A stretch of 42,273 nucleotides of DNA. Origin: a virus (Duplodnaviria > Heunggongvirae > Uroviricota > Caudoviricetes). Made by a program: the position numbers and the translations under genes. Every line of letters begins with the position of its first letter. Position 1 is the first letter of the stretch. The notes under the pieces were generated by a model. The model had not been told where the DNA came from. It saw nothing but the letters and a program-made list of their open reading frames with translations, and ran no database searches. The stretch lies in the IMG/VR virus record IMGVR_UViG_2908959467_000004. One strand, given 5' to 3'. This document shows, piece by piece, positions 33,134 to 38,812 of this stretch.

Positions 33134-33802
33134 GTGCTGGGGGATCTCATGAGGGAAAGAATAATGTCACAGCCCGTATTAACTAATTACCTTAAAACTC
33201 AAATCATCAATAACGCACTTGAGAAAGCGGGTATCCCCAAACGTAAATCAGCACTACGAGCTGCTCGTGTTGAATGGGCCGAACGTGTTCGGCTTGCAGC
33301 TATCGGGGGCGTAGAGAAAGAAGCTGAAATATTAAAAAATATAAAAAAAATAGAAACACTGGTATCAAAATTCCCCGAAGCATTAAAAACCGCCAATAAC
33401 ATTATCAGGGAAGAGTGTTACATGTGTCTGAATCTGGCAGGTTCTCGGGTTACCGTCTATTTCAACGGTAACTACCGAGGATATGAATCAGGGTCACCAG
33501 ACCATATTCACAAAATCGCGCCGGGGGAATTTACCCTTCTGGCAAATGACCCTCTAGTTACAGAGTTTTACGGGTTTGATACACTTTATGAGCAGATACA
33601 GAGCGATGAGTCAGACATTCGACAGAATGTCAGCGCTGCACTCAGTAAAGTGCGCACAGTTAAGCGCCTGCTGGAAGAGTGGCCTGAAGCTAAAGAACTT
33701 CTGCCAGCCGATGCACCATCTGCTCCGCTTCCGCCAGCTATACGACGCGAAACTCTCAACGAAATGATCGGCCTCCCTTCTGACGAAGGGGTAGATGCTT
33801 AA
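33134..33802 (+). CDS. hypothetical protein
   Basis: 222-aa ORF; internal ATG at 33164 is an alternative start. Confidence 0.4.
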   Translation: MLGDLMRERIMSQPVLTNYLKTQIINNALEKAGIPKRKSALRAARVEWAERVRLAAIGGVEKEAEILKNIKKIETLVSKFPEALKTANNIIREECYMCLNLAGSRVTVYFNGNYRGYESGSPDHIHKIAPGEFTLLANDPLVTEFYGFDTLYEQIQSDESDIRQNVSAALSKVRTVKRLLEEWPEAKELLPADAPSAPLPPAIRRETLNEMIGLPSDEGVDA

Positions 33803-36259: not shown

Positions 36260-36264
36260 TCGCT

Positions 36265-36468
36265 ATGACTGTAATCAAAACGCATACCGGAACGGTTATT
36301 ACCCGCACCGGTGAAAAGCAGGTGCAATTGCATCAAAACGCGACAACGTGGGTGGCTGGCCCAAAAGAGTATTACTACAAAGACACTGGCCGCCGCGGTG
36401 GTGCTGTCGGTGTCCGCACTCGTCTGGTGCTGAGCAGCATCCGCCCAATCGAAGCAAAGCAGGAGTAA
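36265..36468 (+). CDS. hypothetical small protein
   Basis: 67-aa ORF directly after the polymerase gene. Confidence 0.35.
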   Translation: MTVIKTHTGTVITRTGEKQVQLHQNATTWVAGPKEYYYKDTGRRGGAVGVRTRLVLSSIRPIEAKQE

Positions 36469-36473
36469 CCCCT

Positions 36474-36695
36474 ATGTCATTTAAATATCGGGACAGTCCG
36501 CTTTATTACCGGGCTGCGAGGGAGGCCTTGCGCCTTGAGCAGTCCGGCGAATATGACCGGGCAGCGAAGGTCTGGGCCAAGGCTAACCGCCAGTCACGTA
36601 ACGAACTGAATCAGGACTGGAGCGAACGCCGGTCTGATTTTTGTCTGATGCAGAACATGCGCGAAAAGCGTAAGGCGGTGAGCGATGACTTGTGA
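36474..36695 (+). CDS. small regulator-like protein (possibly ANR-family-like)
   Basis: 73 aa from ATG at 36474 (SD AGGAG); basic helical protein with C-terminal FC motif. Confidence 0.35.
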   Translation: MSFKYRDSPLYYRAAREALRLEQSGEYDRAAKVWAKANRQSRNELNQDWSERRSDFCLMQNMREKRKAVSDDL

Positions 36696-37167
36696 GCAGA
36701 CCATTCTTGACATGTGCTGCGGCTCTCGTATGTTTTGGTTCGACAAGGAGGACAAGCGCGCCGTGTTCAGTGATATCCGCGCCGAGCAGCATGAGCTTTG
36801 CGACGGTCGCCAGTTGGTTATAAGTCCGGACCTTATAGCTGATTTCCGCGCCCTTCCCTTTGCCGATAACACTTTCCCTGTCGTCGTTTTCGATCCGCCG
36901 CACCTCGAGCGCGTCGGCGATAACGCGTGGATGAGGAAAAAGTACGGGCGGCTCAACAAAGAAACATGGCGCGATGATCTTCGCGACGGCTTCGCCGAAG
37001 CATTCAGGGTATTGCGGACCCACGGTGTACTCATATTCAAATGGAACGAAACGCAGATCCCGGTAAGCAATATCTTGGCGCTGACCGACGAGAAGCCGGC
37101 CATATGGCAACGAACCGTAAAAGCCGACAAAACCCACTGGGTTATTTTCGTCAAAGGTGTGGAATGA
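36685..37167 (+). CDS. small SAM-dependent methyltransferase-like protein
   Basis: 160 aa; N-terminal ILDMCCGS (motif I-like) and VVFDPPH (DPPY-like motif IV). Confidence 0.5.
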   Translation: MTCEQTILDMCCGSRMFWFDKEDKRAVFSDIRAEQHELCDGRQLVISPDLIADFRALPFADNTFPVVVFDPPHLERVGDNAWMRKKYGRLNKETWRDDLRDGFAEAFRVLRTHGVLIFKWNETQIPVSNILALTDEKPAIWQRTVKADKTHWVIFVKGVE

Positions 37168-37460
37168 TGGCCTACGAACGTGAAAGCCTTATCGAAAAGC
37201 ACCTCGTCGCCGAAGTGAAAAAGGCTGGCGGGGTCGCCTTTAAGTTCGTGTCACCCGGTCGCCGCTCGGTACCGGATCGCATTGTCCTGCTACCCGGCGG
37301 TCGCATCGTCTTTGTCGAATGCAAAGCGCCAGGCAAACCACCACGGCCTGACCAGTTACGCGAGCACGAACGGCTGCGCGCGTTGGGCTTTACCGTGGTG
37401 GTATTAGATAGCAAAAATCTGGAGGGGATATTGTGCGGGGAGCCTATTACAACGAAATAG
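37164..37460 (+). CDS. VRR-NUC domain nuclease
   Basis: 98 aa from ATGATG at 37164 overlapping the upstream stop; PD-(D/E)XK-like core DRIVLL...VFVECK. Confidence 0.7.
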   Translation: MMAYERESLIEKHLVAEVKKAGGVAFKFVSPGRRSVPDRIVLLPGGRIVFVECKAPGKPPRPDQLREHERLRALGFTVVVLDSKNLEGILCGEPITTK

Positions 37461-38461
37461 ACCCTAACGCAGCACAATGGCTGCGTAACCTTATTGCTGC
37501 AGGTCATATCGCCCCGGGTGAAGTTGATGAAAGGAGTATCGAAGATGTCGCACCAGACGACTTGCGCGGATTCACACAGTGCCATTTCTTCGCCGGGATC
37601 GGCGTCTGGTCTTATGCTCTGCGTCTGGCCGGATGGCCGGATAACAAACCGGTCTGGACAGGAAGTTGCCCGTGCCAGCCTTTCAGCTCGGCTGGTAAAG
37701 GCGCTGGGTTTGATGACGAGCGGCACCTATGGCCAGCACTATTCCACCTCATCAGCGAGCGACGCCCTAAGCTGGTATTTGGCGAACAGGTTGCGGGAGT
37801 CAATGCCTGGTTCGATCTTGTACAAACTGACGTGGAAGCAGTGGACTACGCCTTTGGGCTTGTCCCGTTTCCGGCTGCGGGCGTCGGTGCCCCGCATATC
37901 CGAGATAGAGCGTATTGGGTGGCCGACGCCAGCGGCGAGCGATCACAGCGGTGGCGAAAGCGCCTCAATAGCATTGAGGAAGATGTCTGGAGATCGTCGA
38001 CCGTCCGGCAACACGCTACACAGCTCCCTGCGGAATTTTGCTCACCTAGCGGGGTGGTACACCCCAACCTGCAACACAAACCCACAGCCGGAGACAAAAC
38101 GCGGTCTAGAAACCTTAGCGGGACTATCCAGATTAGCGGGATGGCCGACAGTGACGACGATCGACAACAACCAAGTTCGTGCCGAGGGCGCAGCGGCCAA
38201 TCATACCGAACGGGGAACGACCCTCGGCGGCGCTGCGAGAATCTGCGGCCCAATACGATTAACGGCTGCTGGGATGGTGCTGACTGGCTCCTCTGCCGGG
38301 ATGGTCGCTGGCGGCCAGTTGAATCCGGCACATGCCCGTTGGCTAATGGGATTACCTCCAGAGTGGGACGACTGCGCGCCTACGGCAACGCGATAGTCGC
38401 ACCAGCTGCCGCAACATTCATCCGCTCGTTTATGGAATGCGCAGGATACGACCTTATTTAA
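37433..38461 (+). CDS. DNA (cytosine-5) methyltransferase, Dcm-like
   Basis: 342 aa; motif I FFAGIGV, motif [15 protein letters not shown], motif VIII-like [10 protein letters not shown], motif X-like YGNAIVAP; a second long ORF (37494..38396, +1 frame) with MTase-like motifs overlaps it. Confidence 0.7.
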
Positions 38462-38778
38462 TGCCACTCACATCTGGCATGATACCGTCCAGAAGGTAAT
38501 TGCTTATATACAACGGAGCCGCCCATGGCATAAGTATAAGCATGAAGTTTTGTCCAGAAGTCCCCATAAACTAGTATTGGGGCTAAAAATTTTGGATCGC
38601 TAACCATAGATGTAGCAGGAAGCTCGAAACCTTTAGAAAGAATGTTTACCAGTGAAGGGTAATTTTCAAAATCAGTGCTATTCCCGCCCACCTCTAAAGC
38701 ATCCAGTTCAAAGTCGAGCACTCCACCATTTTTGTAATACTCCGGAACAGTTAACCCTGATGTTAACAAAGTAGCCAT
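38458..38778 (-). CDS. hypothetical protein, oppositely oriented moron
   Basis: 106 aa; strong SD AGGAGG 8 nt upstream; lower GC; divergent from the helicase gene. Confidence 0.5.
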   Translation of the reverse strand: MATLLTSGLTVPEYYKNGGVLDFELDALEVGGNSTDFENYPSLVNILSKGFELPATSMVSDPKFLAPILVYGDFWTKLHAYTYAMGGSVVYKQLPSGRYHARCEWH

Positions 38779-38812
38779 TAAACAATCCTCCTGAATTTTA
38801 AAGGGTTACATT

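Follow-up and report, generated by a model that had tools for sequence, protein, structure and literature searches.

The locus studied here raises the question of what two small neighbouring genes, one for a 73-aa basic protein and the other for a 160-aa protein with methyltransferase-like motifs, do for the prophage that carries them, and whether they act together. The first-pass annotation, made from the sequence alone, had described the first protein as regulator-like and the second as a minimal methyltransferase-like protein, shorter than canonical DNA methyltransferases, and had proposed that together with a downstream C5-cytosine DNA methyltransferase (C5-MTase) they could form an anti-restriction or epigenetic module. 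In this study, the two genes were followed up by family searches, structure prediction and comparison of gene neighbourhoods. Throughout, "the window" denotes the whole stretch of DNA that was analysed (42,273 nt; IMG/VR record IMGVR_UViG_2908959467_000004).

Prophage Setting and Gene Models

The whole window is a myovirus-type prophage of Escherichia coli of about 42 kb, integrated beside yfhL. The stretch under study was 99.7% identical to prophages of 13 complete E. coli genomes, for example that of the uropathogenic strain F11. In the F11 annotation, the operon holding both genes diverges from a LexA-family repressor gene. It begins with two hypothetical genes, followed by DUF2800, DUF2815, Nmad5, DNA polymerase and a 67-aa hypothetical gene, and continues with the 73-aa gene (ANR, see below), the 160-aa gene (small MTase), VRR-NUC and C5-MTase. 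Beyond the C5-MTase, an oppositely oriented hypothetical gene (106 aa) precedes SNF2, and the integrase comes last. The operon is the early one (replication/recombination) of this integrated prophage.

Both plus-strand ORFs were present in 36474-37167 exactly as the first-pass annotation had described them (Table 1). According to the ORF list and the raw sequence, they have 11 nt in common; the VRR-NUC/PDDEXK gene has its start overlapping the stop codon of the 160-aa ORF and in turn overlaps the C5-MTase gene by 28 nt. Because of these overlaps, the ANR, small MTase, VRR-NUC and C5-MTase genes look translationally coupled within one operon. The VRR-NUC gene, which is also annotated by RefSeq, matched the Pfam VRR_NUC model weakly (18 bits), and the C5-MTase aligned to residues 74-171 of M.HhaI, corresponding to motifs IV-VIII. 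A scan for promoters and terminators gave nothing above shuffled expectation, with a single sigma-70-like site, located inside the small MTase gene at 36707-36734, against 4.0 expected from shuffled sequence.

Table 1. Coordinates of the two genes under study, their motifs and the adjoining context genes in the window.
Feature	Position	Strand	Basis
73-aa ANR gene	36474..36695	+	ATG ORF; MSFKYRDSPLYY...; pI 9.5, 8.8 kDa
160-aa small MTase gene	36685..37167	+	ATG ORF; pI 6.1
Motif I (SAM-binding loop), ILDMCCGS, residues 7-14	36703..36726	+	strand beta-1 and following loop of the model
Motif IV (catalytic, predicted), VVFDPPH, residues 67-73	36883..36903	+	directly after strand beta-4 (residues 64-69)
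VRR-NUC / PDDEXK nuclease, context gene	37167..37460 (alternative ATG 37164)	+	phrog_93 endonuclease, E 5.6e-32
C5-cytosine DNA methyltransferase, 342 aa, context gene	37433..38461	+	PF00145, E 1.5e-12; phrog_363, E 3e-90

Both ORFs are real genes and not chance ORFs. The 73-aa protein matched phrog_2227 (E 3e-25) and the 160-aa protein matched phrog_954, "DNA methyltransferase" (E 4.4e-84). Comparison with diverged prophage copies gave dN/dS values of 0.06 for the small MTase gene and 0.10-0.12 for the 73-aa gene, and both are under strong purifying selection. Long antisense ORFs lie over the same stretch, two of them across the small MTase gene; they had no PHROG family match and were rejected as genes. 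A GTG-extended form of the first ORF (115 aa) was likewise rejected: its family match begins only at residue 42, which supports the ATG at 36474 as the start.

The 73-aa Protein Belongs to the ANR Family

The 73-aa protein scored 72.5 bits (E 1.8e-20) against the NCBIfam model NF033650 (ANR_neg_reg), whose cutoff is 32 bits, with residues 11-63 aligned to positions 2-54 of the 54-position profile. The ANR signature is given in the family description of PMC4983702 as A10, E14, A22, W26, A29, W43 and R47. All seven residues are present in the 73-aa protein, as A18, E22, A30, W34, A37, W49 and R53, and the loop leading from the W34/A37 block to W49 has two residues fewer than in the published signature. 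Because the curated NCBIfam model and the published signature both fit the protein, we assign it to the ANR family; an identical sequence is entered in RefSeq as WP_000008824.1 under the name "ANR family transcriptional regulator." The earlier description of a regulator-like basic protein is borne out by this model score, at more than twice the cutoff, and by the pI of 9.5.

Membership in the PerC family was also considered. The Pfam PerC model (PF06069) gave 19.8 bits (E 9e-4), below its gathering threshold of 22.6, against the score of more than twice the cutoff for the ANR model, and PerC membership was rejected. The PerC/Pch activators are likewise small helical proteins carried on prophages and phage-inducible islands, with a match to the 73-aa protein that is weak and sub-threshold. 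For one PerC-annotated protein of a phage-inducible island, PMC11773190 showed repression rather than activation, and the protein was proposed there as an ANR.

ANRs such as Aar are proteins of less than 10 kDa, with three alpha-helices, which, according to the accounts in PMC4983702, PMC5570504 and PMC10148876, bind AraC/XylS activators and H-NS and alter transcription without binding DNA themselves. With Aar and the ANRs of Santiago et al., the 73-aa protein has in common that it is basic, smaller than 10 kDa, above the model cutoff and in possession of all signature residues. Unlike them, it is encoded in a phage replication operon, and the element holds no AraC/XylS gene: the F11 prophage has 57 annotated features, none of them of the AraC family. 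A cognate AraC/XylS gene nearby is typical of the ANR family, not strictly defining. The lack of an AraC-family partner for ANR in the prophage was counted against the main explanation given in the Discussion.

Close ANR relatives were found in the E. coli phages vB_EcoM-606R2, 611R5 and 689R2, in the Yersinia phages YeP4-6 and in APSE phages; among solved structures, no relative of the 73-aa protein was found. By analogy with Aar, the protein would act through protein-protein binding to host activators of the AraC/XylS type and/or to H-NS, and, judging from its family, it would not act by binding DNA.

The 160-aa Protein Is a Stand-Alone Class I Methyltransferase

The 160-aa protein was matched by two PADLOC models derived from REBASE, MTase_II PDLC03288 (E 8.9e-72, residues 6-158 on positions 3-162 of 169) and oMTase PDLC03730 (E 2.8e-48); these two models and phrog_954 cover the protein almost end to end. 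Pfam returned borderline generic matches only (Methyltransf_11, 21.6 bits), and the RefSeq name of the corresponding protein, WP_000128190.1, is "class I SAM-dependent methyltransferase." A full-text literature search for the RefSeq accessions, phrog_954 and the DPPH motif returned nothing.

Across 61 diverse homologues (42-64% identity), D70-P71-P72-H73 was invariant in every sequence. Further invariant residues in this set were D9, D30, R32, P48, E105, R108, L110 and K119, so that motif I contains one invariant position, D9, and three (L8, C12 and G13) conserved in at least 90% of the homologues. Motif I precedes motif IV, and the conserved core spans the whole protein, with no separate target-recognition domain. 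The motif I/IV assignment made in the first-pass annotation is upheld by the invariant DPPH, by the REBASE-derived models and by the modelled fold described below. We also considered a beta-class N6/N4 DNA methylase (PF01555) and rejected it: the beta order is motif IV before motif I, and the 160-aa protein had no match to PF01555, which matched 19 of the 61 homologues weakly (best E 9.7e-4).

The family is large, with 7,339 clusters of homologues at 90% identity and 1,931 representatives at 50% identity. Nearly all members are 150-170 aa long; a subset with a length of about 248 aa ends in a helical tail, and some members are extended at the N-terminus by 50-80 residues. Homologues with identities of 39-63% occur in phages of Streptococcus, Listeria, Staphylococcus, Enterococcus, Lactobacillus, Gordonia, Corynebacterium, Vibrio, Acinetobacter, Bacteroides and Porphyromonas, and in a Halorubrum virus.

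The shortness that had been held against the protein in comparison with canonical DNA methyltransferases is no objection. The argument that it is too short to be a DNA methyltransferase fails because the whole family is 150-170 aa long and in all probability includes a characterised N4-cytosine DNA methyltransferase, M.NgoMXV/M.NgoDCXV. Another phage protein of this size class is orf13 of Haemophilus phage HP1, which has 173 residues, carries an NPPY motif and is annotated "DNA methyltransferase"; it is an active GATC methylase lacking most DNA-recognition loops. The HP1 Dam shows that a phage DNA methylase can be this small and still function; it differs from the 160-aa protein in family, motif order and target base. 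An identity of the 160-aa protein with an HP1-type mini-Dam was rejected, as no similarity was detectable (BLASTP E 0.76).

Predicted Structure and the Question of the Substrate

An AlphaFold2 model of the 160-aa protein built from a diverse alignment reached pLDDT 94.9 and pTM 0.89; it replaced a model based on 44 close homologues, for which pLDDT was 62.6. The model shows the seven-stranded core of a class I (Rossmann) methyltransferase. DSSP assigned no helices between beta-1 and beta-4, the usual place of helices A and B, and the core is therefore unusually pared down; a beta-hairpin (residues 34-46) takes the place of helix B in the model. In a Foldseek search, 159 PDB entries matched at E <= 1e-3, and the best 50 of the 159 were class I methyltransferases with probability 1.00. 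A methyltransferase fold, which the first-pass annotation had left to prediction, is accordingly supported by both model confidence and structural neighbours.

Sequence searches of the PDB were not significant, and the small MTase family is one without a solved structure. The single 160-aa protein gave chance matches to metallo-beta-lactamase only, and a profile of the 61 homologues gave generic weak matches, with 1ve3 at E 4.6e-5 and RsmD-like and Trm-G10 proteins at E > 0.1. The best Foldseek neighbours were Trm11 (m2G10 tRNA), Bud23, nucleomethylin and PH0226, with TM scores of about 0.5-0.6 and none of them close; further matches were the archaeal rRNA m4(2)C synthase, TrmM, M.TaqI and the rotifer N4-cytosine DNA methylase (N4CMT). 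The neighbours that share a (D/N)PP(Y/F) motif, namely Trm11, TrmM, M.TaqI, rotifer N4CMT and the archaeal m4(2)C synthase, are nucleic-acid amino-methyltransferases. Two observations on the protein were counted against the main explanation: the closest solved structures are RNA methyltransferases (TM about 0.6), and the protein is mildly acidic (pI 6.1).

These neighbours raise the alternative that the enzyme acts on a conserved host RNA such as a tRNA or rRNA, on a nucleotide or on a protein amide, and serves host takeover or counter-defence. Trm11, Bud23, TrmM and the archaeal rRNA m4(2)C synthase all act on RNA, and the protein has no separate DNA-recognition domain. A universal substrate would also fit the unusually high identities (40-63%) among phages of Proteobacteria, Firmicutes, Actinobacteria and Bacteroidota and a haloarchaeal virus. 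No methylation was seen in one lysogen carrying a homologue, as discussed below. Against this stand the end-to-end matches to REBASE-derived DNA methyltransferase models and the position of the gene among replication and recombination genes, the usual place of phage DNA methylases. A characterised relative, M.NgoMXV/M.NgoDCXV, is moreover recorded as an active DNA m4C methylase, and streptococcal homologues share about 95% identity with it. Taking both sides together, we consider a non-DNA substrate unlikely, and the 160-aa protein is probably a DNA amino-methyltransferase.

Relationship to M.NgoMXV

M.NgoMXV (REBASE M.NgoDCXV, GenBank AJ004687) is introduced in 10.1101/2019.12.17.880476 as an orphan gamma-class N4-cytosine DNA methyltransferase with the target GCCHR. 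For the Streptococcus iniae prophage methyltransferase QMA0248_1949, the same paper gives 95% identity to M.NgoDCXV (AJ004687.2) and notes that GCCHR methylation went undetected in the lysogen (10.1101/2019.12.17.880476). A catalytic aspartate of M.NgoMXV is reported in the title of a mutagenesis paper cited as reference 206 of PMC3874165.

The 160-aa protein was 49% identical over 151 residues (E 1e-53) to the 153-aa methyltransferase of S. iniae prophage Javan275. In the 5.4 kb of Javan275 that were inspected, no other methylase is annotated. The blocks CCGSRMFWFDK and FDPPHL are common to both proteins, and in the 160-aa protein, as a member of the enterobacterial clade, the beta-6/beta-7 loop is three residues longer. 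Several sources (NCBI, UniRef and JGI) name streptococcal homologues "DNA N-4 cytosine methyltransferase M.NgoMXV"; the names obtained from sequence clusters were transferred ones. Homology of the 160-aa protein to M.NgoMXV is thus indicated indirectly, through the S. iniae enzyme and the database names. The likeness extends to size class (the near-identical streptococcal copies have 153 aa), to motif I before motif IV with no inserted recognition domain, to a DPPH motif IV with its aspartate, and to the occurrence of both as stand-alone (orphan) genes on mobile DNA. We conclude that the 160-aa protein is a stand-alone class I SAM-dependent methyltransferase, very probably of the M.NgoMXV family (gamma-like). 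Judging from 49% identity to the S. iniae enzyme, the target base and motif of the E. coli clade could differ.

The copy in the window differs from WP_000128190.1 by P112T, G145V and one synonymous difference, and it might be argued that it is a decaying, inactive allele with no current function in the strain. The excess of non-synonymous over synonymous differences (two to one) and the conservation of G145 in at least 90% of 44 close relatives would agree with decay. The frame is uninterrupted and none of the invariant residues is altered, T112 is found in other full-length homologues (e.g., P0116), and residue 145 lies in the beta-6/beta-7 loop, which is variable in sequence and three residues shorter in streptococcal enzymes. 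Since T112 occurs elsewhere and residue 145 is in a variable loop, inactivation is possible, not likely, and we regard a decayed allele as distinctly improbable.

Do the Genes Form a Module?

The first-pass annotation had joined the ANR, the small MTase and the C5-MTase into one co-functional anti-restriction or epigenetic module, and such a module could take the form of a regulator controlling the methylases or of a small MTase assisting the C5-MTase. Several features speak for it: the four adjoining genes overlap at their starts and stops, 13 complete E. coli genomes have the same arrangement at 99.7% conservation, and the two methylases, each a DNA-modification gene, lie in one operon. The wider distribution of the genes argues against it. 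Among 80 viral loci with the small MTase, a C5-MTase homologue lay within 5 kb in two, and ANR together with VRR-NUC was present in one (L032), itself without a C5-methylase. The three genes on each side of the small MTase form no dominant cluster in these 80 loci, the largest neighbour clusters being those of an integrase, in 9 loci, and of a small zinc-finger protein, in 7. Its neighbours vary among phages and are usually replication/recombination genes or an integrase, and in Gram-positive phages the small MTase stands alone among replication genes.

The same prophage lineage was found in 167 E. coli genomes, 30 of which were sampled for slot content. The slot between ANR and VRR-NUC is occupied by the small MTase in 13 genomes, by a DUF4406 protein in most of the sampled 30, or by another small ORF; in the slot from VRR-NUC to SNF2, the C5-methylase, Arc/Rha regulators, DUF6338 or other cargo are found; and a third slot, after the polymerase, may hold a TIR-domain protein. 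Both methylases occur together in the prophage of the 13-genome set (e.g., F11). In arrangement L032, ANR, small MTase and VRR-NUC are present and the C5-MTase is absent, L089 has ANR, DUF4406, VRR-NUC and C5-MTase and no small MTase, and L002 has neither methylase; L090 carries TIR and a frameshifted ANR. Because all four combinations of methylase presence and absence occur, the methylases are best described as cargo that assorts independently and occupies variable slots within a conserved replication operon.

The backbone of that operon is formed in part by the genes that flank the cargo. ANR is a backbone gene in the E. coli prophage lineage, kept while the adjoining methylases are swapped, and VRR-NUC is a backbone gene too, kept in relatives without either methylase. 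The C5-MTase is independently assorting cargo and not a partner of the small MTase. The linkage on which the proposed module depended is not conserved within this one lineage, and independent assortment largely refutes the module, which we now consider very unlikely. The ANR and small MTase genes are two independent accessory genes that form no fixed unit with each other or with the C5-MTase.

Discussion

In this study, we concluded that the two genes at this locus are ordinary genes, already annotated in RefSeq and belonging to described families. Considering all the above results, the explanation that we favour, with a probability of roughly 0.7, is that the 160-aa protein is an orphan amino-methyltransferase of the M.NgoMXV family that methylates phage DNA during lytic growth as protection against restriction, and that the 73-aa protein is a separate ANR mini-regulator. 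An anti-restriction or epigenetic role appears the most plausible for the small MTase.

A plausible model of how the enzyme works can be proposed from the predicted structure. The pared-down Rossmann core would bind SAM through the D9-x-C-C-G13 loop, D30 and D53, and the D70-P-P-H73 loop after beta-4 would position the exocyclic amino group of a flipped base. The target would be read by short conserved loops, namely residues 74-94 (rich in K, R, W and Y) and the beta-6/beta-7 hairpin, and would be short and degenerate. By analogy with M.NgoMXV/M.NgoDCXV, the product in the E. coli clade would be N4-methylcytosine in a GCCHR-like motif.

Timing is suggested by the genetic setting. Prophage orphan methyltransferases are barely transcribed in group A streptococcal lysogens, and the small MTase gene lies in a repressor-controlled early operon; because of these two facts, action on phage DNA after induction is the expected course. 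The gene would stay off in the lysogen and be switched on by induction, whereupon the enzyme would methylate replicating phage DNA, and the progeny would resist restriction in the next host. The missing methylation signal in lysogens, which was brought forward above in support of a non-DNA substrate (10.1101/2019.12.17.880476, in its account of S. iniae), may likewise be explained by repression of the prophage.

A further possibility, to which we give little weight, is that the enzymes of the enterobacterial clade depart from the GCCHR m4C specificity of M.NgoMXV and are near-nonspecific writers or act on ssDNA or RNA, and that the phage-borne ANR is a host-takeover factor directed against H-NS silencing at induction. 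Near-nonspecific or ssDNA/RNA action would explain why about 155 residues remain 40-60% identical across phages of at least five phyla. If the clade does consist of near-nonspecific writers, the family would represent a minimal broad-spectrum counter-restriction enzyme.

The phage-DNA methylase and separate regulator that we favour lead to a more precise labelling of the locus, with the 160-aa gene as an M.NgoMXV-family orphan DNA methyltransferase and the 73-aa gene as an ANR. We found a relative of the small MTase in ~18% of complete E. coli genomes (959 of 5,426), and the family extends to phages of several phyla; it is thus far commoner than was assumed in one paper, which called it "remarkably rare." ANRs are known as virulence anti-activators, and here one forms part of the backbone of an operon for phage replication that has no AraC partner gene close to it, which raises the question of how the phage benefits from it.

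Variation of the Small Methylase and Its Homologues

Comparison of the small methylase of the window, a 160-aa class I SAM-dependent methyltransferase of the M.NgoMXV family, with RefSeq WP_000128190.1 revealed two non-synonymous differences, at window positions 37018 and 37118, which give T112 and V145 where the RefSeq protein has P and G, respectively. Of 44 close relatives, at least 90% retain G145. As the gene's best match among E. coli genomes was 99.8% identical, at least one of these two changes is private to this strain. The homologues also vary in length: some enterobacterial ones (~248 aa; P0011, P0031, P0040) carry a conserved helical C-terminal extension of ~88 aa ('...LPAHHQRRLKHHINRMWLEKMP...'), and others in the family are 50-80 aa longer at the N-terminus, some of them with Cys-rich zinc-ribbon-like segments (P0129).

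The source given for M.NgoMXV/M.NgoDCXV is Neisseria gonorrhoeae, but a prophage protein of Streptococcus iniae reportedly shares 95% identity with it (10.1101/2019.12.17.880476). The S. iniae prophage methylase (L087:2486-2947) itself shares 95% identity with a large cluster of pneumococcal and S. suis prophage proteins (P0314). It is odd for a Neisseria gene to be nearly identical to genes of streptococcal prophages; recent transfer may explain it, or the origin of the clone may be in question. The S. iniae study called homologues of the methylase "remarkably rare" (10.1101/2019.12.17.880476), which does not hold at the level of the whole small-methylase family.

Motif Layout of the C5-Cytosine Methylase

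The C5-methylase of the window could be aligned with M.HhaI over motifs IV-VIII only (residues 74-165 vs. 74-171). Its first 73 residues hold a motif II-like segment of 12 residues followed by a motif I-like segment of 12 residues, the latter immediately preceding PCQPFS, and no in-frame upstream extension of the ORF is possible. The usual I-II-III motif order appears to be rearranged; because PHROG 363 matches the protein over its full length, this layout looks common to the whole family.

A 106-aa minus-strand ORF was observed together with the C5-methylase both in the window and in L089, a locus of the same prophage lineage, and was missing from the related loci L032 and L002.

Variable Slots of the Replication Operon

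Features of the replication operon and its cargo slots
Feature	Position	Strand	Match or contents
"Nmad5 family putative nucleotide modification protein"	33134-33802	+	RefSeq annotation
67-aa ORF	36265-36468	+	phrog_1226, E 4.5e-32
C5-cytosine methylase	37433-38461	+	alignment with M.HhaI; PHROG 363, full length
106-aa ORF	38458-38778	-	phrog_28127, E 1.7e-59
Slot 1	3' of polymerase gene		67-aa ORF, TIR-domain protein or nothing
Slot 2	ANR to VRR-NUC		small methylase, DUF4406 or small ORF
Slot 3	VRR-NUC to SNF2		C5-methylase, Arc/Rha, DUF6338, PI-PLC, YfbU or ATP-binding protein

The Nmad5 gene lies in the same operon as the small methylase, flanked by DUF2815 and the DNA polymerase, and no PADLOC match was found for its product. 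The 67-aa ORF, which is missing from some related prophages (L089), also matches C-terminal portions of longer PHROG families, such as phrog_5148 (positions 74-134 of 136). Across the prophage lineage (167 E. coli genomes), the replication operon is conserved, with three variable cargo slots (window 36260-38800; loci L002, L032, L089 and L090). Together, the slots appear to form a hotspot of defence and counter-defence genes.
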